A stretch of 64,000 bases of DNA. Source: Gemmatimonadota bacterium. GTDB lineage: Bacteria; Gemmatimonadota; Gemmatimonadetes; Gemmatimonadales; GWC2-71-9. Positions within the stretch are counted from its first letter, which is position 1, and the number at the start of each line of letters is the position of its first letter. A program made the translations under genes and the position numbers. The stretch is from the NCBI GenBank assembly GCA_039587475.1, contig JBDHIK010000300.1, positions 7,045 through 71,044 of the forward strand, written 5' to 3'. The notes below the pieces were generated by a model that was given only the letters and a program-made list of their open reading frames with translations, was not told the DNA's origin and searched no databases. Below, piece by piece: positions 1,359-60,563 of this stretch.

Positions 1359-3203
1359 TCAGGCCGTACCGGCCCCGGCGTTCGTGACCTCGACCTCACG
1401 TCGCAGGTAGGGTCTGGCAATGCCGTCGGCCTCGAGCTGGTCCGTGATGAGCCGGGACACTTCCCAATAGACGGTCCAGTAATCCTCGGTGTTAACCCAC
1501 GGTCGGACGAGGAAGTGCACCGCCGAATCCGTCAGATCGTTGACGTCGATCTGCGGTGGTGGATCCTCGAGGACCAGGGGATGGGCGTTCAGCACCGTGC
1601 GAAACGAAACTTCAGCTTGAGCCGTCTGACTCCGGTCCCCGATTTCGAACGTGAGGTCGACGCGCCGGATGGGCTCGGCCGTCTTGTTGCGGATGACGTT
1701 GCTCCACACCTGGCGGTTGGGCACGATGAGCCGCTCGTGATCGAACGTGAGGATGGTGGTCGACACCAACGTCAGGTTCTTGACCGTGCCGGCGACGCCA
1801 GCGGCCTCGATGACGTCCCCGACATCGAATGGACGGTAGATGAGGATCATCATGCCGGAAGCGAAGTTCGACAGCGAGTCCTGCAGGGCGAAACCGACGA
1901 TGAAACCGGCGACTCCGAGGCCTGCCAGAACCGGGCCCACATGGATGCCCAGTTGCGAAAGGCCGATGAGGATGCCCAACAGGAACACCAGGTTGGCCGA
2001 CAGCGTCGCGACCATCTGCTTGAGGAGTGCGGGGACCCGGGTGTCATCGCGGTGGACCGCTGTGGTGACCACCTTCCGCGTAAGACGCGCCAGCAACCGG
2101 AACACGAACACGATCAGGACGAAGATCAGGAAGTTGAACACCATCTGCGGCGCGTTGGCGGCGATCCAATTCGTGATCGAGTCCCAGGCTTGCTGCAGCA
2201 AGCCGGTCGCCACCGTAATGTTCAGGACGTCTGTGGTCACGCGGCCGGTCGCTCTGATCAGCAGTTGCTTCTGTTCGGCTGCGTCGATGGCGCGTCGGTC
2301 CATACCGGCCACGATCGATGTCAACGACGTCGTGGCCGCGTTCAGGCGCTCCTGTGCCGCCGCCGATTCGAGCCGGATACTGGCCGCTTCGACTTCGTCC
2401 GTGACGTCGTTGAGTCGGTCGCCGAGACCTGCCACCACCCGGAGCGTGACGTCGATTTCGCCGGTCAGCCGGTCACTCCGCTGGCGCAGCAACGGATCGA
2501 GGTAGGCGTAGTCCGCCGTGGCGTCGACCTCGAGTGCCGTCTTGAGGTCGGCGATATTGATGAGAGCGATCAGGTTCTCATCGTATTCCCGTCCGGCCTG
2601 CGCCAGGTCGCGCTCGAAGGACAGAAGGCGGTCGGCCGGGACGGTGTCCCGGTTGGCGCGCATGTCCAGAATACGAGCGCCGATGGCGTCCAACTCGTCG
2701 CGAACCATGTTCCGGGCATCGTCCAGAATGATCACGGTCGTCGTGCGCGGGCCGGTCGCGTCGAGTCCGGCGTCCTCCATCTCCAGGATCACCGAGGTCA
2801 GTTGGCCCAACCGTGGACGTACTGCAGCAGCGCGTCGTTCAATCTGGCCGTCCACGACCAGACGCTCATCCCCTTCGGACACGGAGTACTGGACCAGCAG
2901 GCTCTCGATCTCGGCCCACATCGCCGAAACGTCCGCGGTCAGCGAGTCAGCGCGAGCGAGGAGCGCGGTGTTTCGCACGTCGACCGAGTCTTGGATTTGC
3001 CGCAACGAATCCTGGATTCGCTGCAACGAGTCCTGGCCCTGTTGGAGCGTGTCCGCGGCGACAGGATCGGTGGCGGTTGAGTCTGCGGTCGAGTCGCTCT
3101 GTGCCGCCGCGCCTCCGGGGTGCGCGGCGCGACTCACCAGGAGGAACAGCGCAATCAGGGACGAACGTCGCAGTCGTCGGGCGAGGGTGATCGGGTGCGG
3201 CAT
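1359..3203 (-). CDS. Mechanosensitive ion channel (MscS family) with long N-terminal coiled-coil/periplasmic region
   Basis: ORF 1359..3230. The C-terminal half has TM helices followed by the MscS beta-domain signature PFDVGDVIEAAGVAGTVKNLTLVSTTILTFDHERLIVPNRQVWSN. I prefer the ATG at 3203 (MPHPITLARRLRRSSLIALFLLVSRAAHPGGAAAQ, a signal-like N-terminus) over the TTG at 3230. Confidence 0.85.
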   Translation of the reverse strand: MPHPITLARRLRRSSLIALFLLVSRAAHPGGAAAQSDSTADSTATDPVAADTLQQGQDSLQRIQDSLRQIQDSVDVRNTALLARADSLTADVSAMWAEIESLLVQYSVSEGDERLVVDGQIERRAAAVRPRLGQLTSVILEMEDAGLDATGPRTTTVIILDDARNMVRDELDAIGARILDMRANRDTVPADRLLSFERDLAQAGREYDENLIALINIADLKTALEVDATADYAYLDPLLRQRSDRLTGEIDVTLRVVAGLGDRLNDVTDEVEAASIRLESAAAQERLNAATTSLTSIVAGMDRRAIDAAEQKQLLIRATGRVTTDVLNITVATGLLQQAWDSITNWIAANAPQMVFNFLIFVLIVFVFRLLARLTRKVVTTAVHRDDTRVPALLKQMVATLSANLVFLLGILIGLSQLGIHVGPVLAGLGVAGFIVGFALQDSLSNFASGMMILIYRPFDVGDVIEAAGVAGTVKNLTLVSTTILTFDHERLIVPNRQVWSNVIRNKTAEPIRRVDLTFEIGDRSQTAQAEVSFRTVLNAHPLVLEDPPPQIDVNDLTDSAVHFLVRPWVNTEDYWTVYWEVSRLITDQLEADGIARPYLRREVEVTNAGAGTA

Positions 3204-3339
3204 GGATCTGTCCGTGAGGGTCGCCGCCAATCTAACGGTCGGTTGGGGACCGGCGCTATCGTCTTGCCCGGGCGCGTGGCACCAGCGGCCTGAGCCCGTG
3301 GAGGGCCGTCTCGAATCGAGGCGAGATCCGGGTGGGGGA

Positions 3340-3371
3340 GGAGAAGAACCTATGGGGCCCCGAGGGACCCC
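3340..3371 (-). terminator. Hairpin plus U-rich tract just after the lasso precursor ORF
   Basis: Minus-strand RNA GGGGUCC-CUCG-GGGGCCCC (3371..3354) forms a 7-bp stem including one G-U pair, with a tetraloop. AUAGGUUCUUCUC follows. It lies 15 nt downstream of the TAA at 3386-3388. Confidence 0.35.
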
Positions 3372-3385
3372 TCAGGCACCAGTGG

Positions 3386-3526
3386 TTAGGAGCAGTTGGT
3401 CCCCTTGAAGGTACAGCCAAGGTTGCCGTCGATGCGCTGGAACCAGCCGTCATCGAGTCCACTCCAGCCCGCCATGGTCAGCTCTCGGAGCGTCCCAAAC
3501 CGGGTTACCGTGGGTTTCTTGTACAC
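3386..3526 (-). CDS. Lasso-peptide precursor (46 codons, below ORF-track cut-off)
   Basis: Hand translation from GTG at 3526-3524: (M)YKKPTVTRFGTLRELTM|AGWSGLDDGWFQRIDGNLGCTFKGTNCS*. A Shine-Dalgarno AGGAGGG lies 4 nt upstream. The leader matches the lasso recognition pattern Y(-17)xxP(-14)x[L/V](-12)xxxG(-8)xxxxxT(-2)x position for position. The core has Asp at positions 7 and 8. It lies 100 nt downstream of an Asn-synthetase-like (cyclase-type) gene on the same strand. Confidence 0.65.
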   Translation of the reverse strand: MYKKPTVTRFGTLRELTMAGWSGLDDGWFQRIDGNLGCTFKGTNCS

Positions 3527-3545
3527 CGATCCCTCCTGACAACTG

Positions 3546-3572
3546 GGGGTGGTCGGCGCTACGCCCCACCCC
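3546..3572 (-). promoter_or_regulatory. Stable RNA hairpin between cyclase stop and precursor RBS
   Basis: GGGGUGG/CCACCCC (7 bp) plus an inner GGCG/CGCC (4 bp, UAG loop) with a 2-nt bulge. It is 57 nt after the cyclase stop and 8 nt before the precursor SD. No clear U-tract follows, so its role (attenuator, processing site or mRNA stabiliser) is unknown. Confidence 0.3.
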
Positions 3573-3628
3573 AGCGGTGAGGCGCCTGTTCACGAGCGAA
3601 ACACCCGAAAACAGACCGAAGACTCCCG

Positions 3629-5512
3629 TCAGCTGTGGGAGTCAAGCCACATTTCCGTGGCAAACGCATCGTAGGCGGGAGGCCCCAGCGACCCGTTCCC
3701 AGCTGGGTCATCCAGGTATGCCCGGCACGAAGCAAGCAGTTTGCCCGGATCGATGATCCCGAGGTCCGCCAGGTGGGAACACACCCCGGCGGACTCCATC
3801 ATCTCCGATAGTGAATCTGGCAAAGTGCGGGCCAGATACCCGCCAGGAAGCCCGGTGCGCCTGGGCCTTGGCGCCACGACGTCGGCCGGGAGGAAGGACC
3901 GAGCTGCCTGGCGCAGGACCAGCTTGCCTTCGCCTCCTGCGGTCCTATACGGACGTGGGATCGATGCTGCGAATTGCACCAGGCGGCCATCATACAACGG
4001 GGACCTCAGGGCCACCCCTTCCCACAGCCCGATCGAATTCACCAGGGCGTTCACTCTGGCGCCAAACCCGGCCCTGAAATACCAACTCGTCTCCACGGAG
4101 GCCAGCGATTCCCCGGCCCGTCGTTCGACACGTTGGGCCAGCCGCTGGCCGAGGCCGCTCCGCGTCAGAAAATCTGAGCGGATCCACGGGGGCGGACGAT
4201 CCTGGAGGTAGTGAACCAGGGGCCGGCCTCCTCGCGCCAGCCCAGCCAGATCCAAAGCCGTCTGCGGGAGGTTGGGCTGCACGGCCCAGCGAAACAGGAA
4301 CCTGAACCCGGCCCCCCGGTACGCGCGCCGCCATTCGCGGTTCAGGAGTCCCCAGTGCAGTTGCCGCCACAGGTCCCCCAGGTAGACGGGGCTGACCTGA
4401 AACAGCTGATCACCACCGTTGCCACCGAGCGCCACGTGCGCGCCGGCACTTCGAGTGGTCCGCGCCAGTGCGCGATTCCACATCTCGAACTTGTGGGCGA
4501 ACGGCTCATCACGTTGTGCCGCTCGTTGGTACGGTCGGTCCAGCGGAGGCACGGCATCGACATCCGTCCACCGCACCTCGGCGTTCCAATGGGCGGCAGC
4601 CGACTCGATCCATGGATCTTCGTACCCCGGGTCGTCGGGCGGATACCGCATCGAGACCGGCGTCAGCCGCCGGCCCGCTGAGGAGCCCGCCCCGAACACG
4701 GCCGTCGAATCGTACCCACCGCTCATCCACACCGCGGGTCGGTCCACACCGTGTATCCGGGTGGTGACCGCATCGACGAGCAGCGCCTGCAGTTCCTCGG
4801 CGGATTCCTCGAAGGAACCGTGCGAGGGGCTCGTCCCGAAGATCGGTACTTCCCAGTGGGGCTCTGTCCTGGGAAGCCGATCCTGTTCCATCAGTAACGT
4901 CCATCCTGCCGGTAGTCGTTTGATGGCTCGATAACACGTTTCGTCTCGTACCGTGGTCGCGACTCCAGCCGCGTCCTCGGCCAGGGCGCAGAGGTTGTAC
5001 TCCCGGGAGACATCACACGATGCGAGTACGGCGCCGATCGACGAGGCGACCGAGACGATCCCGTCCGAATGGGCGTAGAACAACGGACGTGTACCGGCGA
5101 AGTCCCTGGCGGCGAGCAGGCGTCGGCGATCGCCATCCCAGAGAATGAACGCAAAATCCCCCTCGAGATGTCCTGGACACTCATCGCCCCAGTGATGATA
5201 GGCGTCGAGGATCAGACCGGCCTCAGTCGAGCTGCCGTCGGATCTCGCTTCGCACCGTCGCCGCAAGTCATCGAGGTAGTACAGCGACGCATCAGCTACC
5301 ACGATGACGTTCCCTCGTCTGGCCCACCCGGGCGCGGTTCCAAGCGTTCCGGCCTGTTCCCAGGCGAACGCGCCGAAGGCCAGGGCGCAATCCGGAGCAG
5401 AATCGACCGCTACCTCGTCACCGCGGTCCGACATACTCCGCATGGCCCTGCCGACCCGGTCAGCGAGAACCTTCCCCTGAGCCTTTCCCGTCACGGCGGC
5501 CACGCCACTCAT
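3629..5512 (-). CDS. Asparagine synthetase-like protein, probable lasso-peptide cyclase (McjC-type)
   Basis: ORF 3629..5674, trimmed to the ATG at 5512. The N-terminus MSGVAAV aligns with the AsnB MCGI start, but with Ser in place of the Cys nucleophile. AsnB-fold motifs are present: GDFAFILWDGDRRRLLAARDFAGTRPLFY and the PP-loop WMSGGYDSTAV. A lasso-type precursor lies directly downstream. Confidence 0.8.
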   Translation of the reverse strand: MSGVAAVTGKAQGKVLADRVGRAMRSMSDRGDEVAVDSAPDCALAFGAFAWEQAGTLGTAPGWARRGNVIVVADASLYYLDDLRRRCEARSDGSSTEAGLILDAYHHWGDECPGHLEGDFAFILWDGDRRRLLAARDFAGTRPLFYAHSDGIVSVASSIGAVLASCDVSREYNLCALAEDAAGVATTVRDETCYRAIKRLPAGWTLLMEQDRLPRTEPHWEVPIFGTSPSHGSFEESAEELQALLVDAVTTRIHGVDRPAVWMSGGYDSTAVFGAGSSAGRRLTPVSMRYPPDDPGYEDPWIESAAAHWNAEVRWTDVDAVPPLDRPYQRAAQRDEPFAHKFEMWNRALARTTRSAGAHVALGGNGGDQLFQVSPVYLGDLWRQLHWGLLNREWRRAYRGAGFRFLFRWAVQPNLPQTALDLAGLARGGRPLVHYLQDRPPPWIRSDFLTRSGLGQRLAQRVERRAGESLASVETSWYFRAGFGARVNALVNSIGLWEGVALRSPLYDGRLVQFAASIPRPYRTAGGEGKLVLRQAARSFLPADVVAPRPRRTGLPGGYLARTLPDSLSEMMESAGVCSHLADLGIIDPGKLLASCRAYLDDPAGNGSLGPPAYDAFATEMWLDSHS

Positions 5513-5646
5513 GGCCGAGGCTCTCCGGTCTCTTCTCGTCCTGGCGCGACCTGCCCCGGTCGAACACGTGAGACGTATGTTGCACATTGGGTGGGGACCG
5601 TACGGTCCCACGTGTACCTCACCGGCAGGCGTCTCCGGAGATCCGC

Positions 5647-6828
5647 ATGCGGCAGCAGCACGCCCTCCAGCCAATCACTCTGCGCCGACGCTGGTTGCCG
5701 GCAGTTACCCTGGCCGTCTGGGTGCTGCTGGTATGGTTGGTCCTGCGGCCGCGTCCGCCGCTGGAGCCGGTGAATTGTTGGGTCATCTGTTCCGGGTCTG
5801 CGGTGACGGATATCCTGGCGAATGTTCTGGCGTTCGGAGTTGCCACCTTCCTCCTGGTGCGGTCCGGCGTCCGCTGGTGGCCGGCAGCGCTTCTGGGCGT
5901 GGCGCTCGTGTTGGTCGCGGAGTTTCTTCAGTGGACGGTCTTGCAGGGTCGTGACCCCAACGTCGTCGATCTGGCCACCGGCTCGTTCGGGGCGGTCGTA
6001 GGCGCCATGATGGCCGCAATCGCCTGGCGAGGTGTTCGACCGTCGCGCCGCAGAATGATCCTGATGGGGGTGTGGTTCGGCTGGCAGGGTTGGATGGCGC
6101 TGACGGTATGGGCCTTCCTCCCGGTCGTTGGTCCGGCACCGTACTCCGTGGTCGTGACCCCGGCCGGACACGCCACAGGTATCGAAGTGGACGCGCAGGA
6201 ACGACACGAGAGCTTCCTCATCGACGGTCGGTTCCGGGCGCCCGAGCCGGGGAGGTACCGCACCCTCGCCGTGTTGCTCGACCGGAACGGATGGATCGCC
6301 GAGGTCGCCGTCTCGTGGCGTGGCCTGGTCGTGGGCACGCGCCTGCGGGGTGGGGCACTCGGGCTCGCCACGCCGGGACTGCACCTCATTCGCACGCTGC
6401 CCCCCGAGGGTGGAGGGCCGGTTGCCTTCACAGCTTGGCGGTCGCCACGGGAGTGGCACCTGGACGCATCCCGAGCGGGTTGGGCTGGCGTCGAAGACGT
6501 GGTCCCCAGTCCGTTGTGGGGCTGGGCGCTGTTGTATCCAGGACGTTATGCCATGGGCTGGGAACGTCACGTGTTCACCGGACTCTATGGTGTGCTGCTC
6601 GCGCTGTTCCTCGGGCTGACGACTCGATGGGCCGTCGGTGGCCGCCCCCTTCGCCTGATCCTGGTGGGATTGGCCACCGTGGCCTTCGGTCTCGGCGCCA
6701 TGCCGATGGCCCTGGGGAGCGCCGCCGCCGTCACGTGGCATTGGTTGGTGGTTCTCGGCGGGTACGTGCTGGGCGTGGCTCGGCTGCCGAGGCCACGGGG
6801 TAAGTCCAGTCTTCCTGAGGTGCCGTGA
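5647..6828 (+). CDS. Polytopic membrane protein of unknown function (N-terminal region weakly VanZ-like)
   Basis: ORF 5587..6828, start moved to the ATG at 5647 (MRQQHALQPITLRRRWLPAVTLAVWVLLVWLVL). It has several strongly hydrophobic helices at both ends, a soluble middle section of roughly 150 aa, and high GC3 in this frame. The 454-aa antisense ORF is R/P/G/H-rich and looks spurious. Confidence 0.6.
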   Translation: MRQQHALQPITLRRRWLPAVTLAVWVLLVWLVLRPRPPLEPVNCWVICSGSAVTDILANVLAFGVATFLLVRSGVRWWPAALLGVALVLVAEFLQWTVLQGRDPNVVDLATGSFGAVVGAMMAAIAWRGVRPSRRRMILMGVWFGWQGWMALTVWAFLPVVGPAPYSVVVTPAGHATGIEVDAQERHESFLIDGRFRAPEPGRYRTLAVLLDRNGWIAEVAVSWRGLVVGTRLRGGALGLATPGLHLIRTLPPEGGGPVAFTAWRSPREWHLDASRAGWAGVEDVVPSPLWGWALLYPGRYAMGWERHVFTGLYGVLLALFLGLTTRWAVGGRPLRLILVGLATVAFGLGAMPMALGSAAAVTWHWLVVLGGYVLGVARLPRPRGKSSLPEVP

Positions 6829-6839
6829 CGCCTTCCTCA

Positions 6840-7655
6840 CTATGGACCAAGCGACTCGCCGCAGTGCTTGCAATACCGGGCGTCAGGGGCGTGCCCGGCG
6901 CGATTGCAGGACCCGCACGACGGGCGTTGGCTGCTCATCCCGTGGGCTTTGGTGAGTTCCACGGTGACGATGCTGGTGGGTACCGCGATGATGGCGTAGC
7001 CCAGGATCATGACGAGCGAGGCCAGCGCCTGGCCCCATGGGGTGTGTGGCGTCACATCCCCGTATCCGACGGTCGTCAGTGTGACGATGGCCCAATAGAC
7101 GCTGCGCGGAATGCTCGTGAACCCGTTCGACGGGCCCTCGACCATGTACATGCCCGACCCGAGAATGACTGCAAGGGAGACGACCGCCAGGAAGAAGATG
7201 CTGATCTTGCGGCGGCTTTCCCTGAGTGCCACGATCAGCCGATCGGCCTCCCCCATGTACTGGACCAGCTTGAGGATGCGATAGACCCGCAGGACCCTCA
7301 GGATCCGGATGATCAGGAGATAGCGGCTGCTGGGCAGAATGATGCTGAGGTATGTCGGCAGGATCGACAGCAGTTCCACGATCCCGAAGAAGCTGATCGC
7401 GTAGCGCCACGGCTTGGGGTGACAGGCCAGCCGCAGGAGGTATTCGATGGTGAAGAGGATCGTGAAGGCCCATTCCGCAGCATAGAGAATGGGCCCCCAA
7501 CGGTCCCGGATCGCGGTCACCGAGTCGAGCATGACGGCTGCGACACTTATCAGGATGGCCCCGATCAGGATGAGATCGAAGGTCCGTCCCGCCCGGGTCG
7601 TGTGGCCGAAGATGATGGTGTACAGCGATGTGCGCCAGGAAGAGCGACTGTTCAT
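6840..7655 (-). CDS. Voltage-gated-type K+ channel with C-terminal zinc-ribbon
   Basis: ORF 6840..8027 trimmed to the ATG at 7655 (MNSRSSWRTSLYTIIFG). It has an S4-like helix LLIIRILRVLRVYRILKLVQY, the K+ selectivity filter TLTTVGYGDV, and a C-terminal CGSC-x11-CKHC motif. Confidence 0.8.
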   Translation of the reverse strand: MNSRSSWRTSLYTIIFGHTTRAGRTFDLILIGAILISVAAVMLDSVTAIRDRWGPILYAAEWAFTILFTIEYLLRLACHPKPWRYAISFFGIVELLSILPTYLSIILPSSRYLLIIRILRVLRVYRILKLVQYMGEADRLIVALRESRRKISIFFLAVVSLAVILGSGMYMVEGPSNGFTSIPRSVYWAIVTLTTVGYGDVTPHTPWGQALASLVMILGYAIIAVPTSIVTVELTKAHGMSSQRPSCGSCNRAGHAPDARYCKHCGESLGP

Positions 7656-7931
7656 GGATCCAAAGATACGAACCAGGGCGGATGGCGCGAGGCGCGAGGA
7701 TCGCGCGCCGCGAGGAGCCTCCAATCCGAATATTTGGGATATTGTCCAGGGTAGGTCGGAAAGGCTGGCGTTTGGAGGGCAACTCGCTATCTTGTCTGGC
7801 GTTGTACCAACGAGGTTCCGGCGCTTCTGACCGGAACGGGCCCAGCGTGGGGGCGACGATCCACGCAGCACGAGTAGTCGGTTGTACGGCAGCGCCGGAC
7901 CCGATTGCGACTCGTTACCAGGGAGTGCGGC

Positions 7932-8138
7932 ATGCGTACGACAGGAACAGTGAAGTGGTTCAACGACAGCAAGGGTTTTGGATTCATCACCCCTGACGAC
8001 GGCTCGAAGGACTGCTTCGTCCACCACACCGCCATTCAGTCTGAGGGCTTCCGTTCCCTCAATGAGGGCGACAAGGTCGAGTTCGACATCGTCGAAGGCC
8101 AGAAGGGCCCCGCGGCGGAGAACGTGGCCCCCGTGTAG
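7932..8138 (+). CDS. cspA: Cold-shock protein (CspA family)
   Basis: [65 protein letters not shown] contains the RNP1/RNP2 motifs KGFGFI and VFVHH-like. The start is the ATG at 7932, inside ORF 7905..8138. Confidence 0.95.
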
Positions 8139-8159
8139 GTGGCCCCTCCCCAGGTTGGC

Positions 8160-8200
8160 ACGGGCCGTCGAGAGAGTCTCTCGGCGGCCCGTTGTCGTTG
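8160..8200 (+). terminator. Rho-independent terminator of cspA
   Basis: 15-bp stem (8160-8174 ACGGGCCGTCGAGAG pairs with 8178-8192 CTCTCGGCGGCCCGT, one G-U pair) with a 3-nt loop, followed by TGTCGTTG. It begins 22 nt after the stop codon. Confidence 0.6.
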
Positions 8201-8276
8201 ATCGAGCCCCAGTCGATGGGGTTTACCCCTCTCTGTCGCCACGCCATCTTCCCGGCATCTTCATCCCCATCTGCGA

Positions 8277-10133
8277 ATGACTCACAGCGATCCCTCTGTC
8301 GACCTGATCCCTCTGGAAACGCTGTTCGGGAATCCTGAACGGGCCATGCCGAGGCTCAGCCCCGATGGCCAGCGCCTGGCCATCCTGGCCCCGGTCGACG
8401 GTGTGCTCAATGTCTGGGTGGGGTCGACCGGCCAGGATGACTTCACGCCAGTCACCCGGGATCAGGAGCGTGGCATCCGGACGTACTTCTGGGGCTACGA
8501 CAATCGGTCGATTCTCTACCTGCAGGACATCGGCGGCAACGAAGACTGGCACCTGTTCCGGACCGACCTGGACACCGGCAACACCGTCGATTTGACGCCG
8601 TTCGACGGCATCCAGGCGCAGGTCGTCGACTACTCCAAGCATCATCCCACGACGATCCTCCTCGGTCTCAACCGGAGAGACCAGCGCCTGCACGACGTCT
8701 ATCGCCTCGAACTCCCCGACGGCGCACCAGAGATGGTCGCGGAAAATCCCGGCAATGTGACGGGGTGGCTGGCGGACAAGGAGGCCCGTGTTCGGGGCGC
8801 GCTGGCGGCGCGGGAGGATGGGGGATTCGATGTGTTGCTGCGGGACGGGTCCACGGAAGACTGGCGCGTCTTGCTGAGCTGGTCGGCGGAGGAGAACATC
8901 AACAGCCACCCCGTCGGATTCTCCGGCGACGGGGAACGCCTTCATCTGCTGGATGCACGCGGGGGCAACACCGCTCGGCTGGTGTCTCTCGACCTGGCAA
9001 CCGGGAGCGAGACGGTCCTGGCGGAGGACGACACCTATGATGTGTCGGCCATCGAGTGTCATCCGGATACCTTCGACGTCCAACTCGTGGGATTCGCGCG
9101 CGCCCGCCTGGAATGGCAAGCACTCGATCCGGCGCTGGCAGCCGACCTGGAAGTCATGTCCCGGATCGACGAGGGGGACTTCGCCGTCATCAGCCGCACC
9201 GACGCCGACGACCGCTGGCTCGTCGGCTACACGCGTGACACCGGGCCGGTCGCCTACTACGAACTCGACCGCCGGCAGCACCAGGCCCGGTTCCTGTTCC
9301 ATGACCGTTCCGAGCTTGCTGACTATGCCCTTGCTCCCATGGAGCCGATCGTCTTCACCGCCTCGGACGGCCTGACGATTCACGGCTATCTGACCCGTGC
9401 CGGAGGCGTGTCCGAAGGCCCGAGGCCGATGGTGCTGAATGTCCACGGTGGCCCGTGGGCCAGGGACATGTGGGGCTATGACCCCGAAGCGCAGTGGTTG
9501 GCCAACCGCGGCTACTCCTGTCTCCAGGTCAACTACCGGGGCTCCACTGGATACGGCAAGGACTTCATCAATGCCGGGAACCGGGAGTGGGGCGGCAAGA
9601 TGCACCAGGACCTCATTGACGCCGTGGGCTGGGCGGTCGATGCGGGTGTCGCCGACCCGGATGGGATTGCCATCTATGGGGGATCCTACGGGGGGTACGC
9701 GGCCCTCGTCGGGGCCACGTTCACGCCCGATCTCTTCAAGTGTGCCGTGGACATCGTTGGGCCCAGCAACCTTCTCACCTTCATCAACAGCATCCCCCCG
9801 TACTGGTCGACCTATCTCGAAGTCCTGCACCAGCGGGTCGGTGACCCCGAGCACGACGAGGAGTTCCTGCGGTCCCGGTCCCCACTCACGCATGTCGACC
9901 AGATCAGGATTCCCATGCTCATCGCGCAGGGCGCCAACGACCCCCGGGTCAAGCAGGCGGAATCGGAACAGATCGTCGCAGCCATGGCGGCCAAGGGTAT
10001 CGACCACGAGTATCTTCTCTTCGAGGATGAAGGGCATGGCTTTGCCAAACCGGAGAACAGACTCCGCTTCTATCGTGCCGCCGAAGCATTCCTGGCACGA
10101 CACTTGGGGGGACGGGATGAATCGACGACTTGA
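8277..10133 (+). CDS. S9-family serine peptidase (prolyl oligopeptidase / dipeptidyl aminopeptidase-like)
   Basis: 618 aa with an N-terminal beta-propeller-like region. The catalytic-triad contexts are YGGSYGGYAAL (Ser), AQGANDPRV (Asp) and FEDEGHGF (His). Confidence 0.9.
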   Translation: MTHSDPSVDLIPLETLFGNPERAMPRLSPDGQRLAILAPVDGVLNVWVGSTGQDDFTPVTRDQERGIRTYFWGYDNRSILYLQDIGGNEDWHLFRTDLDTGNTVDLTPFDGIQAQVVDYSKHHPTTILLGLNRRDQRLHDVYRLELPDGAPEMVAENPGNVTGWLADKEARVRGALAAREDGGFDVLLRDGSTEDWRVLLSWSAEENINSHPVGFSGDGERLHLLDARGGNTARLVSLDLATGSETVLAEDDTYDVSAIECHPDTFDVQLVGFARARLEWQALDPALAADLEVMSRIDEGDFAVISRTDADDRWLVGYTRDTGPVAYYELDRRQHQARFLFHDRSELADYALAPMEPIVFTASDGLTIHGYLTRAGGVSEGPRPMVLNVHGGPWARDMWGYDPEAQWLANRGYSCLQVNYRGSTGYGKDFINAGNREWGGKMHQDLIDAVGWAVDAGVADPDGIAIYGGSYGGYAALVGATFTPDLFKCAVDIVGPSNLLTFINSIPPYWSTYLEVLHQRVGDPEHDEEFLRSRSPLTHVDQIRIPMLIAQGANDPRVKQAESEQIVAAMAAKGIDHEYLLFEDEGHGFAKPENRLRFYRAAEAFLARHLGGRDESTT

Positions 10134-11538: not shown

Positions 11539-14500
11539 CTAGGGGTCTCGATCCCCCGCCAGAGCCTTGTAGTAGTTCTCGACCATTTCCTCGTAGCCAT
11601 CCGGCACTTCGTCGGTCCCCACCTGCAGGAGACGTTCTTCGTCACTGGGAAGGATGCTCTTCCGCAATCCGAACTCGAATTCCTTCAGGCCCTGGACGAT
11701 GTCCCGTTCCAGCACGGCGATGCTCTCCGGGCCCGCCAGCGACTCGCCCGAACCGAGGCCCCGGAGACGGCCGATGATACGATCGAGCTCCGAGGGGTCG
11801 ACGCCCTCTTCCCGCAACTGATCGCGGAGCTCCTCGAGTTGCTGTCGGCGCTCGGCCAGTTCCCGGCCGAACTGCCGAAGATCCTGGGGACGCAAGCGGC
11901 CGCTTCCTCCACCCTGTGCCCGATTGGTATTGGTCGCTGTTGAATCACCGGCCGCCCCGTTCGGTGCGCCTCCGGGCTGTTGCCCATCCTGCGGTGCGCC
12001 CTGCTGCTGACCAGCCTGGCTGCCCTCCCGCAACCGATCCTCGAGAGACTCGAGTGCCGTCACGACCTCCCTGGTCTCTTCGAGGGCCTGCTCCAGGCGT
12101 TGTTCGCGGCTTTCACCGGTGGCGTCCAAGGCCGATTGCACCTGCTCCTCCAGCCGTTCCAGCGTGCCCGCGATGTGGTTTTCGAAGTTCCGGGCATACT
12201 CCTTCGACCGTTGCTGTACGACGCCGCGGGAATACAGGATCTTCTCGCGTATCTGATCGTCGCGGATGGTGCCGGCCGCCCCCTGGAGCCGACGGGCGGC
12301 ATCGGGCTGATCCCGCATCGACTCCCGTGCCATCTGGTCGAGGTCCGCTTCCAGGTTGCCGACTTCCGATCCCATCCGCTCCTTGGCCTGTTGCACCTCG
12401 CGCAAGTCACGGGCGTAGTCCTGATCTGTCGGATCCAATCGGTCGACCCGATCGACCATTCGCTCCTGCTGCTCGCGGAGGCGTTGGGTGCGCTGCAGCG
12501 CTTCCTGGGCGTCTCGTTCCAGTCGGCGTGACTTGTCCCGGTCGAGTTGGCGGCGAGCTTCGCGCAGCTGGTCGAGCGCCGTGTTCCCGATCGCCTCCCC
12601 GTCACGTTCTCCGGCCGCAGCCGCGCGGCGCATCTCTTCCGCCGCTTCTCGCAGTTGCCGGGCCGTCTCGGCCAAGTCGGGGAGCGACTCCTCGCGGGCC
12701 AGGCGCTCCAGACTCCGTGCGACTTCCTCCGCTTCCTCTGCAAGCTGACGCTGTGACTGGCCAGATCCGCCCGTGCGCTGACCCTGTTGCTGGGCCCGGG
12801 CGCGCATCCGTTCGTTTTCCTGTTGCTGGCGGCGGGCCAGCTCCCGGAGTTTTTCCAGGGTCTCGTCGATCCTATTGTCCACTTCCTGCTGGGCCCCGCG
12901 CTGCACCTGCTCGTACTGATTGCTCAAGCGGTCCAACTCGAGTTCGAACAGGTCGGCGAGTTCCTCGTTGATCTCGCCATCGCCACCCTGACCGCCGCCT
13001 TGCTGGCCTTGGGCTACCTGCACATCGCGGAAGACGGCTTCGGCCCGCTGCAGGAACTGCAGGGCCTTCTGCTCCGGTGCCAGCGCCGAGTCGGGTTCGA
13101 GTTCCCCCAACGCTTCCTCAGCCAGGGCCATCTGCTCCGCGGCCAGGGGCAGGAGCTCGGCGATGGCGGCGAGAGACGAATCCGTCGTCACGCCACGGTT
13201 CACCATTCGCTCGGCCAGGAGGCCCACTTCCTCACGGAGGCGGCCCTGTGACAACGCGACCGTGGACAGATTCTCCTCGAAAGCTTGGCCGGAGTACTGA
13301 TCCCGGTCCCGCACCAACTTGAACGTCGCCGAGATGATCATGCGTTGCTGGCTGGACAACTCGGCGCCACTCATCCCGCCCTGTCCCGGCTGTCCCCCTT
13401 GTTCGACTTGTCGGAAATTGCGGTCGAACGGCCGCACCTCCAGGAAGTACATGTCGGTGATGGTGGGGGCTCGTCCCTGACCCGCGCCATCGGCAGCCCG
13501 CGCGAAATAGGAGACGAGATCTCCAGGAATCAGCCCGTATTCCTCCAGGAACAGGGTATGCGTTCCCAGGTAGTCCGTCCGTCCCGGCCGGCCGGTATAC
13601 AGGGTGTCGACCGTTTCCGGTCCACCGTTGACCGAGTACACGAACTCCAGGCGCCGGACCCCGTAGTCGTCCTGGGCCCGGACTTCTGCCACGACCTCCT
13701 CGATGCTGGTGACCTGGATGTCCCGCCCCGGCCGTGTCATCGTCAGCGTGGGCGGCTGGTCATCCAAGGGGTCGATCAGGTAATCGGCCGAGGCCACGAC
13801 CCTCCGCCCCTGCGGTCCGTCCAGGAGGATGCGATAGCTTCCCGGAATGGTGACGGTGATGGACCCTGCCAGGCCACCGTCCGGCGTGGGGTCCAGCGGG
13901 ATGGTGTCGCCGGGAGATTGCTCGATGGCGCCGCCGGGAACGGGGATCGTCGGCTGGACAGCGATCTCAACACGGGTGCCGACCAGCGCGGCGACGTCAC
14001 CGGACCCACTCTGCGTGACCGGAGCAAGCCCGGTGTATCGCGGGAAGTGATACGTGAGGTCGATGGTTTCCACGTACGGCAGTTCGACCACCTCGACGCG
14101 ATAGACCGGGGACCGCACCCCTCCTGCCTCGACGTAGTACTCCATCGCCTCGTGAAGATCGAACACCATGAGGCTGTGGGCGGTGGTGGTATCCTCCCGC
14201 AGCATCGACCACCGGGTCCACTCCCCTTCGCTGGTTCCCAACACGAGGACGACGTCGGCGGCATCGAAGTTCTCGAGGTGGGCGTTCACCTTGAGATCGG
14301 CACCGACTGCGAGCACGGTGTCGCCGGGCAGCACGCCGATACGATAGGGGTTGTAGCTTGCCGTCTCCGACCACGGGGACACCAGAACCGGAGTCGTCCG
14401 GTGCAGAAATCCCGGTCCCAGCAGGAAGAGCCCGATTCCGAAGACGGTGGATCCGGCGACCAGGCCTGACGAGCGGCGTAACCCCTCGCGTTCGACCCGT

Positions 14501-14946
14501 CGGCCGTCATCGACCTGGTGGCACTCCTCCACCGCTGCATGGACGATGCGCTGAACCAGGATATCCGACGTTCCGGGAGCAACGGCGCGCTGAAATTCGA
14601 CCGCGCTCACCACCCGGCCGGCGAGTGTGGGTTCGTGTTCCTCCAGGTACAGGGCAACCCGTTCGTCGGATACCCGCCGGAACAGCGGGACCATCACGAC
14701 GCGCACCGTGACGGCCGTGAAGGCGAGCCAGGCCAGCACCCGGATGACCGTGACGGCCGTGGCGTCGAACCGGAAGCCGTCAATGGCGAAGCCGGCAGCG
14801 AGGAGGATGCCTGCCGCCGCCAGCATGAGAATCGCCGCACCTCGCAGGACGATCCTGAGACGCCACCGGTTCCGAACGGACCGGACGACGTGAATCAGCT
14901 CATCTCGATCGTTCAGATGCCTGGAGAACAAGGACCCCATGACCAT
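11539..14946 (-). CDS. DUF4175-like membrane protein with very long Glu/Arg/Gln-rich coiled-coil C-terminal half
   Basis: 1135 aa. The N-terminus has TM helices (LRIVLRGAAILMLAAAGILLAAGFAI and others). The C-terminal ~500 aa is a low-complexity coiled coil (RELARRQQQENERMRARAQQQGQ...). It is the last gene of the MoxR/DUF58/BatA-type operon. SD GGGAG lies 5 nt upstream. Confidence 0.75.
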   Translation of the reverse strand: MVMGSLFSRHLNDRDELIHVVRSVRNRWRLRIVLRGAAILMLAAAGILLAAGFAIDGFRFDATAVTVIRVLAWLAFTAVTVRVVMVPLFRRVSDERVALYLEEHEPTLAGRVVSAVEFQRAVAPGTSDILVQRIVHAAVEECHQVDDGRRVEREGLRRSSGLVAGSTVFGIGLFLLGPGFLHRTTPVLVSPWSETASYNPYRIGVLPGDTVLAVGADLKVNAHLENFDAADVVLVLGTSEGEWTRWSMLREDTTTAHSLMVFDLHEAMEYYVEAGGVRSPVYRVEVVELPYVETIDLTYHFPRYTGLAPVTQSGSGDVAALVGTRVEIAVQPTIPVPGGAIEQSPGDTIPLDPTPDGGLAGSITVTIPGSYRILLDGPQGRRVVASADYLIDPLDDQPPTLTMTRPGRDIQVTSIEEVVAEVRAQDDYGVRRLEFVYSVNGGPETVDTLYTGRPGRTDYLGTHTLFLEEYGLIPGDLVSYFARAADGAGQGRAPTITDMYFLEVRPFDRNFRQVEQGGQPGQGGMSGAELSSQQRMIISATFKLVRDRDQYSGQAFEENLSTVALSQGRLREEVGLLAERMVNRGVTTDSSLAAIAELLPLAAEQMALAEEALGELEPDSALAPEQKALQFLQRAEAVFRDVQVAQGQQGGGQGGDGEINEELADLFELELDRLSNQYEQVQRGAQQEVDNRIDETLEKLRELARRQQQENERMRARAQQQGQRTGGSGQSQRQLAEEAEEVARSLERLAREESLPDLAETARQLREAAEEMRRAAAAGERDGEAIGNTALDQLREARRQLDRDKSRRLERDAQEALQRTQRLREQQERMVDRVDRLDPTDQDYARDLREVQQAKERMGSEVGNLEADLDQMARESMRDQPDAARRLQGAAGTIRDDQIREKILYSRGVVQQRSKEYARNFENHIAGTLERLEEQVQSALDATGESREQRLEQALEETREVVTALESLEDRLREGSQAGQQQGAPQDGQQPGGAPNGAAGDSTATNTNRAQGGGSGRLRPQDLRQFGRELAERRQQLEELRDQLREEGVDPSELDRIIGRLRGLGSGESLAGPESIAVLERDIVQGLKEFEFGLRKSILPSDEERLLQVGTDEVPDGYEEMVENYYKALAGDRDP

Positions 14947-14955
14947 ACGTACTCC

Positions 14956-17073
14956 CTATTCGATACCGGCCCGCCGCCATGTGGCGGGAGCTGGATGTTC
15001 CTGGCCTGGACGGTTGGACCACAGGGACTCCACGGTCAGCAACCCAATTGCGCCGAGCAGGAGATACCACCATAGACCCTGACGACGCTCGCGCTCGGCG
15101 GGTGTCAACGTGGCCGTCTGGCCCGCCGAGGCCAGCGCCCCGGTGTCCGGCAACGTGGTCGCGGCCACGAATGCCGCCACGTCGAGACCCCGCAGGTCCG
15201 ATTCCCGCCGGTCCACATTGACCGCCACCGGATAGGATGCTCGCTCTCTTCCGAGAGGGTAGACCTCGTAGAAACCGGCCTCCGTCAGAGCAATGATTGG
15301 GGACGCCCCGGTGACATCGACCGGCCGGCGTTCCCGGCCCGGCGCTTCCACGATGACCTCCTGCCGCAAGGTATCGATATCGATATCCATGTCGGCCAGG
15401 ACATCCTCGAGGTCAACAGCCTGTCCCGCCAGACGCCACCCGTCCGTGGTCCGCTCCCCGCCGAGGAACTGGGTGACCCGGTGGACGAACGGAAGGAAGA
15501 CCGGTTGGACCGGCAGATCGCTCCAGCTGTTGTCGAACGGCGAGCCCCACAGGAGCACCCGACCTCTATGGTAACGGCGGGCCACCAGGGCAGGGGCCCC
15601 GTCGGTGTATCGCGCTACGGTCTCCGAGCTGTCCGCCACGTCCACGGCCCGGTAGCGAAAGAAACGAGGTCCGGCCACGTTGCCGTCGTCCGCTCCCCGG
15701 AATATCTCGAAGGCGGGGTGCCGATAGTCCACGTTGGCCAGGCGAACGCCCTGCCGATCCACGCGGTCCACGACCCCCCGCCAGGTACCCGGCAGCAGCT
15801 CTCTCGCGGCTTCCGGCCAACTGCTCAAGGGGCTCCCCGCACCAAGCACGACCCACAATCCGGCCCCCTCCCCGACGTGGTTCACCAGGGCCGTTCCTGC
15901 GGCGCCTGGCGGAAATGGACTGTCGTGGAGGAGCACCACCTCGGCCGCGAGGATATCCACCGGCCTGACCCGATCGACCCGTCGCCGGTCAACCGCGAAG
16001 GCGGGATCCTCCGCCAGCCGCAGGGCTTCACGCAGGTACAGGGAAGCATTCCCTCTGGCGTTTCGGCCCTCGATGATCAGGACGGAGACGGCCGGACGGC
16101 TCGTCACCGCCACGTGGAATGCGTTGTCCGGCGCCAGGAGGTCGTCGCCCAGCCGGACCGTTGCCCGGGACATGGTGGCGGGTTGCGCCACCGGTCCCAG
16201 TCTGACCGTCTGGCTCTCCGATGGAGGAAGGGACACGTTCGTCCGGAACGCTTCCTGCCCGTTCACCTCCAGGATCACCGGAAGTTCCGCCACCGGTTCC
16301 GACCCCTGGTTCACCACTCGGGCCGCCACCGTCATGGCCTGGCGGCCTTCCTGCTCGGTGCGGGTAATGTCAACCGAGGTCACCAGCCGGTTTGACGGCC
16401 GGTCGGCCGAGACATCAACCGGGCGAAGCGTGGCTCCCGGATGGAGCGCCGTCGGCGTGGTGCGGTCCCAGGCAGCCGCTTGAAAATCCGAAATGACCAC
16501 CACTTCGCGCTGGCCAAGGGGTGATTCGGCGAGGACCTGGTTGGCGCGTTGGATGGCGGCGGGCAGGCGGGTGGCTCTGGCGCCCGGCCCCAGGGTGTCC
16601 AGGGCCCGGACCAGGGCGGAGCCGTCGCTCGTGGGGTCGACGATCAGGGTCGCCTGCTCGTCAAAGGTGATGAGCGACATGCGGGAGGCCGGGCCTTCTC
16701 CGGCCACCGTGGCGCGCACCGCGTCGAGCGCCCTCTCCCAGGTCTGCCCGTACCCCATGCTATAGGAGCGGTCGAGAACCACGATCAGTTCACGGCCGGG
16801 CGCCTCAGTCCCCGGTCCTGCCAGCATGCCGTCGACCAGCGGTCGGCTGAAGGCTGCCACAAGGAGAACGATAGCCAGAGCCCTGAGCGCAAAGAGCATC
16901 CAGTGCTGGATGCGCTGGCGGCGCATCTGTCGGTACGGCAGCCTGGTGAGAAACCTGAGCGACGGAAAGCGGACGACGTCCTTCCGGTCCTTGTTGGTCA
17001 GGTGGACCAGAACCGGGACGCCCAGGGCCACCAGGCCGGCCAGGAAGAGCGGCGCCAACAGAGACAGGTTCAT
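14956..17073 (-). CDS. BatA-N-terminal-domain / VWA-domain membrane protein
   Basis: The N-terminus MNLSLLAPLFLAGLVALGVPVLVHL...FPSLRFL is the aerotolerance-regulator N-terminal double-TM motif. A VWA MIDAS-like LIVVLDRSYSMGYG follows, and there is a C-terminal TM (WWYLLLGAIGLLTV). Its start abuts the DUF58 stop (TAGATG). Confidence 0.85.
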   Translation of the reverse strand: MNLSLLAPLFLAGLVALGVPVLVHLTNKDRKDVVRFPSLRFLTRLPYRQMRRQRIQHWMLFALRALAIVLLVAAFSRPLVDGMLAGPGTEAPGRELIVVLDRSYSMGYGQTWERALDAVRATVAGEGPASRMSLITFDEQATLIVDPTSDGSALVRALDTLGPGARATRLPAAIQRANQVLAESPLGQREVVVISDFQAAAWDRTTPTALHPGATLRPVDVSADRPSNRLVTSVDITRTEQEGRQAMTVAARVVNQGSEPVAELPVILEVNGQEAFRTNVSLPPSESQTVRLGPVAQPATMSRATVRLGDDLLAPDNAFHVAVTSRPAVSVLIIEGRNARGNASLYLREALRLAEDPAFAVDRRRVDRVRPVDILAAEVVLLHDSPFPPGAAGTALVNHVGEGAGLWVVLGAGSPLSSWPEAARELLPGTWRGVVDRVDRQGVRLANVDYRHPAFEIFRGADDGNVAGPRFFRYRAVDVADSSETVARYTDGAPALVARRYHRGRVLLWGSPFDNSWSDLPVQPVFLPFVHRVTQFLGGERTTDGWRLAGQAVDLEDVLADMDIDIDTLRQEVIVEAPGRERRPVDVTGASPIIALTEAGFYEVYPLGRERASYPVAVNVDRRESDLRGLDVAAFVAATTLPDTGALASAGQTATLTPAERERRQGLWWYLLLGAIGLLTVESLWSNRPGQEHPAPATWRRAGIE

Positions 17074-17967
17074 CTAGCGGACTCGCTGCAGACGCTGGCG
17101 CCGCGATAGATAATCGAACAGGGCGTGGTCGAGAGGCCGACTGGTGTTCACTTGGCAGTAATCCACACCGATCTCGCCCATGACCTGGGTGATCTGGCCG
17201 ATGTGGTTCTCGATCAGCCCCTTGTACCCCGCACGGATGCGGTCCGGAATGACGGGGATGCGGTCGCCGCTTTCCAGGTCTTCGAACTGTCGAGGTTCAT
17301 CGAAGGAGAAGTCCAACTCCGCCGGGTCCAGCAGGTGAAAGGCGATTACGTCGTTGCCCTTGAGGGACAACCGATTGACGGCACGCCGCACCGCCTCCGG
17401 GTCTTCATAGAAATCCGAGATGAGAACCACGATACTCCGACGCCTGATGGCTTGCGCGATCCTGCGGAGTGGGCGATCGAGGTTGCCGGACCCGCCAGGC
17501 CTGAGCTGATCGATGGTGTGGAGCACGGTGTCCAGTTGCCGTCCGGTCGCTGGGACCTGAGCCACGATCTCCTGATCGAAGCCGATGACGCCCACCCGAT
17601 CGCGCTGTTGGTAGGAGAAGTAGGCCAGGCACGCTGCCAGGTACCGGGCGTAGTCCAGCTTGGTGATGACGTCCGATCCGAAGTCCATCGAAGCCGACAC
17701 GTCGATGAGCAACAGGACGTTGGCATTGGTTTCCGCCTCGAATTCCTTCACGTACAAACGATCGGTCCGGCCGTAGACGCGCCAGTCGATCCGGCGGATG
17801 TCGTCTCCAACCATGTAGGGCCGGTGTTCGGCGAAGTCCGTCGAGACGCCGAGGTGTGGCGACTGATGCAGCCCGTGGACGAACCCGGTGACCAGAGCCT
17901 TCGCCACGAGCGACAGGTTGTCGATGCGCGCCAGCACTCTTGGATCGACGAAGCGGGTCAGGGTCAC
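17074..17967 (-). CDS. DUF58-domain protein (VWA-like, MoxR partner)
   Basis: HRPYMVGDDIRRIDWRVYGRTDRLYVKEFEAETNANVLLLIDVSASM is the classic DUF58 signature. The GTG start overlaps the MoxR stop (GTGA). Confidence 0.9.
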   Translation of the reverse strand: MTLTRFVDPRVLARIDNLSLVAKALVTGFVHGLHQSPHLGVSTDFAEHRPYMVGDDIRRIDWRVYGRTDRLYVKEFEAETNANVLLLIDVSASMDFGSDVITKLDYARYLAACLAYFSYQQRDRVGVIGFDQEIVAQVPATGRQLDTVLHTIDQLRPGGSGNLDRPLRRIAQAIRRRSIVVLISDFYEDPEAVRRAVNRLSLKGNDVIAFHLLDPAELDFSFDEPRQFEDLESGDRIPVIPDRIRAGYKGLIENHIGQITQVMGEIGVDYCQVNTSRPLDHALFDYLSRRQRLQRVR

Positions 17968-18998
17968 AGGTCGGAACTCGGTGGGGTGACGACCTCCAGC
18001 AGTCGGCTGACCAGGATGTCCGACGTGATTCCCTCAGACTCCGCGAAGAAATTCGTCAATACCCGGTGACGCAACACCGGGTGCGCCAGGGCCCGAATGT
18101 CGTCCACGGTCACGTGATAGCGACCTTGCATCAGGGCCCGGGCCTTGGAGCCCAGGACCAGGTACTGTGCCGCCCGAACCGAAGCTCCGTACGACACCGC
18201 CTTGGTGATGAAGTCCGGTGCGCCCGGTTCGGCCGGCCGGGTGCGGCGGACCAGGGTCAGGGCATACCGGGCCACATGATCTGAAACGGGGACCCGGCGC
18301 ACCAGGCGCTGGTAGGCAACGAGGGTAGGGCCATCGACGGCGTGCTGGAATTCGGGTTCCTGAATGGCGGTCGTGTTCTTGACGACCTCGAGTTCCTCGT
18401 CTTCCGGGAGGTGATCGATCATGATGTTGAACATGAACCGGTCGAGCTGCGCCTCCGGGAGCGGGTATGTCCCTTCCAGCTCGATGGGATTCTGGGTGGC
18501 GAAGACGTGGAACGGCTCGTCCAGCGTGTAGGTCCGGCCCTGGACCGTCACGCGGTGTTCCTGCATCGCTTCCAGCAAGGCCGATTGGGTCTTCGGTGGC
18601 GTGCGGTTGATCTCGTCGGCGAGTACGATGTTGCTGAACACCGGACCTGGCATGAAGCGCATGCGCCGCTCCCCGGATGCCGGGTCTTCCTGCACCAGGT
18701 CCGTCCCCACGATGTCCGACGGCATCAGGTCCGGCGTGAACTGGATGCGGGAAAACTTGAGGTCGAGGACCTGTGAGATGGTCTGGATCAGCAGGGTCTT
18801 GGCCAGCCCGGGCACGCCGACGATCAGGCTATTGCCCCCGGCAAAGAGCGTCAGCAAGATCTGGTCGACCACTTCCTGCTGGCCCACGATCAGCTTGCGT
18901 AGCTCCGCGACGATCTTGTCGTGGCCGTCCTTGAGCTGGTCGGCCAGGGTGACGTCGTCGGTCGGCGGCGCGGTCTCAGGTTGCAGTTCGGTGCTCAT
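17964..18998 (-). CDS. MoxR-family AAA+ ATPase
   Basis: Walker A GVPGLAKT and Walker B LADEINRTPPKTQSALLEAMQE mark the AAA_3 family. I take the ATG at 18998, preceded by AAGGAAGG; the track start at 19043 looks over-extended. Confidence 0.95.
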   Translation of the reverse strand: MSTELQPETAPPTDDVTLADQLKDGHDKIVAELRKLIVGQQEVVDQILLTLFAGGNSLIVGVPGLAKTLLIQTISQVLDLKFSRIQFTPDLMPSDIVGTDLVQEDPASGERRMRFMPGPVFSNIVLADEINRTPPKTQSALLEAMQEHRVTVQGRTYTLDEPFHVFATQNPIELEGTYPLPEAQLDRFMFNIMIDHLPEDEELEVVKNTTAIQEPEFQHAVDGPTLVAYQRLVRRVPVSDHVARYALTLVRRTRPAEPGAPDFITKAVSYGASVRAAQYLVLGSKARALMQGRYHVTVDDIRALAHPVLRHRVLTNFFAESEGITSDILVSRLLEVVTPPSSDL

Positions 18999-19056
18999 GT
19001 CACCTTCCTTGGGCCCATAGGGGCGGTCCAGGCGGCTCGGCAAGGGGCCGACCGCG

Positions 19057-22472: not shown

Positions 22473-22476
22473 GCCG

Positions 22477-60553: not shown

Positions 60554-60563
60554 GGAAACGACC

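Follow-up and report, generated by a model that had tools for sequence, protein, structure and literature searches.

The stretch of DNA analysed here (hereafter the window; 64,000 nucleotides from a Gemmatimonadota bacterium) carries on its minus strand a small precursor gene, A (3386..3526), which consists of 46 codons and a TAA stop codon. The start codon is a GTG (3526..3524), preceded at a distance of 4 nt (ATCG) by the Shine–Dalgarno sequence AGGAGGG (3531..3537). The 46-amino acid product, MYKKPTVTRFGTLRELTMAGWSGLDDGWFQRIDGNLGCTFKGTNCS, is divided into a predicted leader from M1 to M18 (MYKKPTVTRFGTLRELTM, 3473..3526) and a predicted core from A19 to S46 (AGWSGLDDGWFQRIDGNLGCTFKGTNCS, 3389..3472). 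All of these positions agreed with the original prediction upon re-reading of the DNA, and the translation was identical. The GC content at the three codon positions is 0.49/0.51/0.79, and the value at the third position is coding-like for a genome of 65% GC. A GC-rich hairpin without a U-tract (3345..3380, minus strand) starts 5 nt past the stop codon, and the 60 nt 3′ of the stop have a predicted folding energy of −25.5 kcal/mol. Because scans for a consensus terminator and promoter over 3200..5800 gave no match, the role of this element has to be inferred; the stem-loop probably stabilizes or terminates the transcript. No Rfam family was matched in a search of the whole window.

The product of the ORF was matched by the NCBIfam model NF033521 (lasso_leader_L3, "lasso RiPP family leader peptide-containing protein") with 21.2 bits and so exceeded its curated cutoff, 19 bits (E = 2.1e-4, one protein searched with 18,950 models). 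Scoring with lasso precursor models had been proposed along with the original prediction. The match corresponds to approximately 1e-8 per comparison; with 1,079 reading frames of at least 30 aa in the window, about 1e-5 such matches are expected by chance. The gene had been described as unannotated, which holds for the ORF track used at that time, but not for NCBI and JGI/IMG, where the identical 46-aa protein is called as a "hypothetical protein". It is, hence, unnamed rather than undetected.

Gene C (3629..5512, minus strand) adjoins the precursor gene upstream and encodes a protein of 627 aa (601 aa with a start at 5434 in the JGI call). The protein begins with MSGVAAV and contains the Pfam domains GATase_7 and Asn_synthase (PF00733, 2.3e-27). 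As noted in the original prediction, which described an asparagine synthetase homologue on the same strand lacking the Cys nucleophile, this residue is replaced by Ser2; the PP-loop SGGYDS is intact. An alignment of six enzymes (the window enzyme and five relatives) displayed Ser, Ala, or Thr at position 2, never Cys, and an invariant SGGxDS motif (S264). The best-scoring NCBIfam model was that of the lasso cyclase (NF033535, "lass_lactam_cya") with 188.3 bits (cutoff 525), and NF033561 scored 98.3 bits (cutoff 300). The AsnB equivalogs reached 154 bits (TIGR01536, cutoff 267) and 73 bits (a second model, cutoff 499), so that none of the curated cutoffs of named NCBIfam models was attained. 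NF033535 and NF033561 are lineage-specific "exception/subfamily" models; L002 and L005, both canonical clusters, encode cyclases that likewise scored below these cutoffs (142 and 238 bits). Since these canonical enzymes also fail, the sub-cutoff score of the window enzyme is uninformative with respect to function. The closest sequences in the PDB are an amidotransferase and AsnB; a solved lasso cyclase structure of the lineage of the window enzyme was not found there. With AsnB (PDB 1ct9), the enzyme shares the GATase-like N-terminal domain and the PP-loop synthetase domain with SGGxDS. Unlike AsnB, it carries Ser in place of the N-terminal Cys, scores below the AsnB cutoffs, and has a leader-bearing peptide as the product of its partner gene.

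To place the enzyme among its homologues, 689 cyclase homologues were collected from the protein database (E ≤ 1e-30), among which the source-named ones of the top matches listed belonged to Gemmatimonadota, and 80 further cyclase loci were obtained in a metagenome scan. Six-frame translations of all loci were screened for B1, B2, HPr-kinase-like, and VanZ-like proteins by means of iteratively enriched profiles, the family profiles being built from 63 B1, 63 B2, and 53 kinase sequences. In the relatives, the genes usually follow the order B1-B2-C-A-kinase, and A comes immediately behind C, as it does in the window. Where 1.5 kb or more of sequence upstream of C was available (61 related loci), 52 loci carried B1 and/or B2; where 1.8 kb or more of downstream sequence was available (51 loci), 43 carried an HprK-related kinase. 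The relatives of the window cyclase at 36% to 48% identity are located within clusters encoding curated lasso B1, B2, and HprK-related kinase proteins, and the precursors of these canonical clusters match the same leader model NF033521. Because of this context, the enzyme was placed with the lasso cyclases. The original prediction had named a grouping with genuine AsnB enzymes as the opposing outcome; the comparison came out in favor of the lasso model (188 versus 154 bits), with the relatives residing in lasso clusters. An assignment of the window enzyme to the lasso cyclase lineage rather than to AsnB is therefore supported at the level of sequence comparison.

Examples of the canonical type are L002 (PqqD, 1.8e-18; NF033537 "lasso peptide biosynthesis B2", 2.6e-19), L005 (Transglut_core3, 5.4e-19), and L049 and L014, in which the lasso PqqD chaperone and a B2 above the cutoff were identified, L049 also encoding an HprK-related kinase. 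The L049 locus (Ga0101944_10003930, 5601..9900 and 13643..15040) comprises the full B1-B2-C-A-kinase set, and a VanZ-like gene is located 4 kb away. Its core, AGWEGLDDGWFQRIDGNLECSFTGRRCS, is identical to the window core in 25 of 28 residues, although the two cyclases share only about 42% identity. Gene order is fluid in the family. The B genes are found 2 to 3 kb from C in L005 and L036. A precursor in the gap after C was searched for in L005 and L006 and was absent from both; that of L005 is located 2 kb further, beside B2. Both loci, which are 45% to 48% relatives, have one or two Ferritin_2 genes (PF13668) after the cyclase (L005 7202..8856, L006 12216..13118) and a large GAF/PAS histidine kinase gene in front of it. 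The cyclase of L006 stands alone, with no precursor or B2 within 10 kb. In a basal clade, L066 (675..4990; likewise L084) comprises an HprK-like kinase, C, and A, and neither the local profiles nor Pfam detected B1 or B2 on the 11-kb contig of L066; its layout is similar to that of the cyanobacterial cluster without B genes described in PMC6993621. Three tandem precursors with a shared leader and different cores follow one cyclase in L029 (3680..4900) and L030 (3250..4450); B1, B2, and kinase were not found on these contigs of about 7 kb. At least two cyclase loci each occur in the single assemblies JACDJB01 (L063, L083) and CAJDVF01 (L073, L080).

Orthologous precursors of exactly 46 codons are located behind orthologous cyclases in four other Gemmatimonadota loci, L001 (a GTDB MAG), L003, L004, and L008. 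The window peptide shares 74% to 83% identity with them. All four start with GTG, which is preceded by AGGAGG, GGAGG, or AGGAGA at a distance of 4 to 5 nt. A GC-rich 3′ hairpin is also found behind orthologous precursors, with comparable structures in L003, L004, and the sister locus L049. The cutoff of NF033521 was passed by four of the five other precursors tested (L001, L003, L008, and L049); the orthologues scored 19.4, 22.8, and 22.7 bits, and L004 remained below it with 15.4 bits. The 46-codon ORF is thus a real and conserved lasso peptide precursor gene.

The leader motif YxxPxLxxxGxxxxxTx is represented in the window precursor by Y2, P5, V7, G11, and T17, and is near-invariant across the 11 family precursors aligned. 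Invariant positions are Tyr−17, Pro−14, Arg−10, Gly−8, Arg-Glu-Leu (−5 to −3), Gly2 of the core, and Asp8 of the core. The original prediction had correctly counted Tyr−17, Pro−14, Val−12, Gly−8, and Thr−2 back from Ala19. It had treated Val−12 as a departure from the usual Leu, but Val is common at this position in the canonical Gemmatimonadota relatives. Thr−2 is present in 10 of the 11 precursors. In L004 (approximately 3641..3781), it is replaced by Cys (RELCL/AGW), and a leader with Ile at −2 has been validated experimentally (PMC10368454), so that Thr−2 is not an absolute requirement.

Between the window and L001, 19 of the 32 nucleotide differences in the precursor gene are located at third codon positions, and the changed codons comprise 16 synonymous and 10 non-synonymous ones. 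The dN/dS ratio (Nei–Gojobori, ten within-clade pairs, dS being saturated in most of them) was 0.05 to 0.29 for the precursor; that of the cyclase within the clade was 0.13 to 0.18. For the unsaturated pair L001–L008, a ratio of 0.13 was obtained for precursor and cyclase alike. The leader (dN 0.06 to 0.18 versus dS 0.5 to 3.3) is constrained like the core, its dN being no higher than that of the core. Taken together, dN/dS is close to 0.1 for leader, core, and cyclase, and, as judged from these substitution patterns, cyclase and precursor are maintained by purifying selection.

The core starts with the small residue Ala1 and contains the potential acceptor Asp8, the second Asp of the core, which is invariant in the family alignment. 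Following established lasso biochemistry, the 18-residue leader (YxxPxVxxxGxxxxxTx) would be cut off after Met18, and the PP-loop chemistry of the cyclase would adenylate the side chain of Asp8 and couple it to the free Ala1 amine. The Ala1–Asp8 link would close a ring of 8 residues, with the 20-residue tail threaded through it. For this peptide, the ring position, the disulfide, the threading, and a supply of B1/B2 in trans are our predictions. The cleavage register appears ambiguous, because a Gly1–Asp7 ring with Thr−3 suits every family member equally. Two Cys residues of the core, Cys20 and Cys27, are located in the tail and are conserved in the clade. They would probably form a disulfide resembling the single one in the tail of class IV lasso peptides. 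The block DDGWFQRIDGNL of the core is invariant in the clade. The calculated monoisotopic masses are 3004.323 Da for the linear core, 2986.313 Da for the lactam, and 2984.297 Da for the lactam with the disulfide ([M+2H]2+ 1493.156, [M+3H]3+ 995.773); in the Gly1–Asp7 register, the latter two masses would be 2915.276 and 2913.260 Da. The precursor ends in NCS, and this C-terminal Ser (3386..3391) is shared by all five clade members and most relatives. In lasso peptides associated with a kinase, phosphorylation takes place at this C-terminal Ser; the clade without B genes has no kinase nearby.

On the other side of the cyclase gene, a divergently oriented gene (5587..6828, plus strand; start at 5647 in the JGI call) encodes a VanZ-like membrane protein, which scored 29.3 bits against PF04892 (cutoff 30.1). 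A VanZ-like gene adjoins C in every member of the clade lacking B genes and is also present in several canonical sister clusters. The protein may have a role in immunity or export rather than as a protease. Further genes near C and A encode a K+ channel, an S9 peptidase (8277..10133), and an M14 carboxypeptidase, and an MscS channel gene is located at 1359..3230. The second gene downstream of the precursor, on the minus strand (2 to approximately 1168), encodes a di-haem cytochrome c peroxidase of the MauG type; it is cut by the window start and was completed from the adjoining sequence L007 (14267..15589). The window core contains two Trp, a residue that MauG enzymes modify in proteins, and the MauG-type gene is absent from the other clade members. 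In three of these, a large convergent gene encoding an LVIVD/FG-GAP repeat protein (approximately 800 to 930 aa) immediately follows the precursor (L001 5441..5926, L004 3851..6220, L008 4909..7713). The corresponding gene of the source contig (L007 15620..18007) is located about 4 kb from the precursor, with the MscS and MauG genes in between. The proximity of the LVIVD/FG-GAP gene to the precursor could reflect conserved synteny or a functional link. Farther away, the window harbors a BatA/DUF58/VWA/DUF4159 aerotolerance-like operon (11539..22505), in which a protein of 1,135 aa (11539..14946) has no Pfam match on record and includes a long, coiled-coil-like region rich in Gln, Glu, and Arg. 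At its end (59006..64000; L088 8584..13783), an operon encodes a molybdopterin oxidoreductase (973 aa), a 4Fe-4S/NrfD-type subunit, and a Nitrate_red_del-type chaperone.

Neither an exporter nor a kinase gene is adjacent to C and A in the window. B1 and B2 were not detected in the window using tblastn with the L002 proteins or a two-sequence profile, and none was among the Pfam matches listed for the 28 smaller predicted genes (25 of the 27 families matched). The search was extended to the source contig (JGI Ga0451564_000619, 103,477 bp), of which positions 701–80,557 are covered by the window, L007, and L088. The 63-sequence B2 profile, run against all six frames of these three sequences, gave a best E-value of 0.71, and no B2 (PF13471/NF033537) was found. 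The 63-sequence B1 profile (RRE/PqqD-like, PF05402) had no match at E ≤ 10, either in the covered part of the source contig (approximately 80 kb) or in the loci lacking B genes; the same profile recovers B1 in most canonical loci. The best match of the kinase profile in these sequences had an E-value of 4, and no kinase was identified. L001, L004, and L008 (contigs of 6 to 9 kb) display the same layout of a VanZ-like gene next to C-A, without B1, B2, or kinase. Because B1 and B2 are both absent over about 80 kb, the window locus is not termed a complete canonical lasso cluster; it is a lasso-type C-A module.

Several candidates for the missing functions were rejected. A B2-profile match at 22468..22932 on the plus strand (E = 0.039) left the catalytic Cys unaligned, showed no Cys-His-Asp pattern, and was gone with the richer profile. 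The S9 peptidase was weighed as a candidate isopeptidase for the lasso or protease for the leader. Among solved structures, it is closest to an acylaminoacyl peptidase (5l8s, 1.4e-59); the 60 matches listed included no lasso isopeptidase, and the gene is not syntenic in L001, L004, and L008. The VanZ-like protein was not retained as a stand-in protease, its invariant residues being confined to the membrane VanZ domain; the C-terminal domain is poorly conserved and contains no triad. The 101-aa and 322-aa genes of L007 past the window start had no relevant Pfam or NCBIfam match that would indicate a cryptic B1 or B2. Translation from an internal start codon at Met18, with Met-aminopeptidase then exposing Ala1, was dismissed: position −1 is occupied by Leu (CTG/TTG) in L004 and L008, and purifying selection acts on the leader.

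In a neighbor-joining tree of 83 cyclases calculated without an outgroup, the window enzyme and those of L001, L004, and L008 grouped in a single clade. Its sister group comprises L049, L027, L017, L014, and L015, all of which have B1-B2 directly upstream of C; in L014 and L015, the VanZ-like gene is located next to B1-B2-C-A. Given the monophyly of the clade lacking B genes and its sister position to canonical clusters, the simplest history would be that B1-B2 and the kinase were lost or relocated once at its base.

How the leader is processed in this clade can be read in different ways. We favor, with moderate confidence, that the ORF is a lasso-type precursor and the upstream gene its cyclase, both forming a satellite C-A module whose leader is bound and cut in trans by B1/B2 encoded elsewhere, for example in a second lasso cluster of the same genome. 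The clade would descend from B1-B2-C-A-kinase clusters and would now retain the VanZ-like gene, C, and A. The original prediction had assumed recognition by a B1/RRE protein. The recognition element in the leader is indeed present, but no gene for B1 or B2 was found in the window or the approximately 80 kb of the contig. Recognition by B1/B2 in trans appears most likely, with a probability we put somewhat above even, because the leader has kept its RRE-binding motif in full and evolves under purifying selection, and the fluid gene order together with the two cyclase loci per assembly makes a supply in trans plausible.

A possible, although rather unlikely, alternative is a maturation independent of B1/B2, in which housekeeping proteases clip the leader and the cyclase alone closes the ring, yielding either a threaded lasso or a branched-cyclic product; the tail disulfide may replace the C-terminal phosphorylation as a bulky lock. 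The absence of B1, B2, and kinase from about 80 kb and from the L001, L004, and L008 contigs (63/63/53-sequence profiles) fits such a pathway, as does the purifying selection on the C-A pair since the loss, and further loci of the family (L066, L029/L030, L006) lack B genes as well. There is precedent in PsmA and PsmC and in a Stanieria C-A-kinase cluster (PMC6993621), and because the pseudomycoidin cyclase works without B1/B2, the step in trans is not compulsory (PMC6993621). However, pseudomycoidin made without the kinase is not a threaded lasso (PMC6993621), and the L001, L004, and L008 contigs are short (6 to 9 kb), so that distant B genes are possible. Moreover, the leader residues Y−17, P−14, V/I/L−12, and the residue at −2 are as conserved as in the clusters bearing B1/B2, and a leader dN no higher than that of the core is hard to explain if the leader goes unread. 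The stricter version, a lasso or branched-cyclic pathway naturally freed of B1/B2, for which cyclase, precursor, and VanZ-like partner suffice and the leader is recognized by the cyclase itself or trimmed off by housekeeping proteases, is offered as a tentative proposal of low probability. That the module is a decaying remnant left after deletion of B1-B2 and the kinase, from which no product is made, would account for the missing core biosynthetic genes, and removal of B1-B2 from the L014/L015 arrangement yields exactly the layout of the window. A and C are, however, intact in five independent genomes with cyclases down to 59% identity, ω is low (0.13 to 0.18 for C and 0.05 to 0.29 for A), and length, GTG start, Shine–Dalgarno sequence, and 3′ hairpin have all been kept; on account of the selection data, a relic is very unlikely. 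Similarly improbable is a non-lasso function, with the enzyme being AsnB, a PEP-CTERM-type amidotransferase, or a catalyst of other macrolactam chemistry, and the small ORF unrelated or differently modified. The scores below all named NCBIfam cutoffs (188 versus 525 bits for the lasso cyclase) and the nearest solved structures, an amidotransferase and AsnB, would be in line with it. Against it stand the clade-wide lack of the nucleophilic Cys, the lasso cyclase as best-scoring model, the homologues within curated lasso clusters, and the small ORF, which always directly follows the enzyme and combines a lasso leader with a ring-compatible Asp. Compared with these alternatives, a satellite C-A module served by B1/B2 in trans remains our preferred reading.

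Among characterized systems, PsmA and PsmC give pseudomycoidin in E. coli and Bacillus subtilis without B1/B2 (Zyubko et al., PMC6993621). Clusters of the paeninodin/pseudomycoidin type from Firmicutes (C-A-K-B1-B2-(N)-D; PMC6993621) share with the window the position of A directly downstream of C. The pseudomycoidin core begins with Ala (PMC6993621) and its precursor ends in Ser, the same being true for the window peptide, and HprK-related kinases are also encoded in the canonical Gemmatimonadota relatives. Unlike this type, the window locus belongs to another phylum, has no adjacent kinase, B1, B2, or ABC exporter, and possesses two tail Cys and a VanZ-like gene. The putative natural lasso cluster without B genes in Stanieria cyanosphaera PCC 7437 (PMC6993621) resembles the window in combining cyclase and precursor without B genes. 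It retains a kinase and a glycosyltransferase, whereas the window has no kinase, and it is a single case, whereas the window layout is conserved throughout a clade and under selection. The nearest counterparts are the uncharacterized canonical Gemmatimonadota clusters (L049, L014, and L002), which have the same NF033521 leader and the same order of C and A; L049 also has a near-identical core and VanZ-like genes nearby, as in the window. In these clusters, B1 (lasso PqqD chaperone), B2 (NF033537), and an HprK-related kinase flank C-A, in contrast to the window clade, which has none of them. Lasso gene clusters in Gemmatimonadota MAGs have been counted by genome mining at the antiSMASH level (PMC11316326), and our literature search retrieved no report of a characterized lasso peptide from this phylum.

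The window locus provides a concrete precursor/cyclase pair of the Gemmatimonadota with a defined predicted product. The lasso assignment by itself is ordinary, and the layout of the clade lacking B genes is the more interesting part. What is new, as far as the comparison of sequences tells, is a conserved, monophyletic, and selected clade without B genes beside a canonical sister that encodes nearly the same core. Such a clade lends itself to testing, in a clean natural setting, whether every lasso pathway needs B1/B2. Cluster-based mining rules that ask for a B protein, as those of antiSMASH and RODEO generally do, would miss such C-A modules. If B1 and B2 are truly absent, the clade would represent the first natural lasso biosynthesis independent of B proteins at the level of a clade, such independence so far being known only from gene deletion in a heterologous host (PMC6993621); the window and L049 would then form a natural matched pair for asking what B1 and B2 do. 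If B1 and B2 act in trans, lasso "clusters" can split into satellites.
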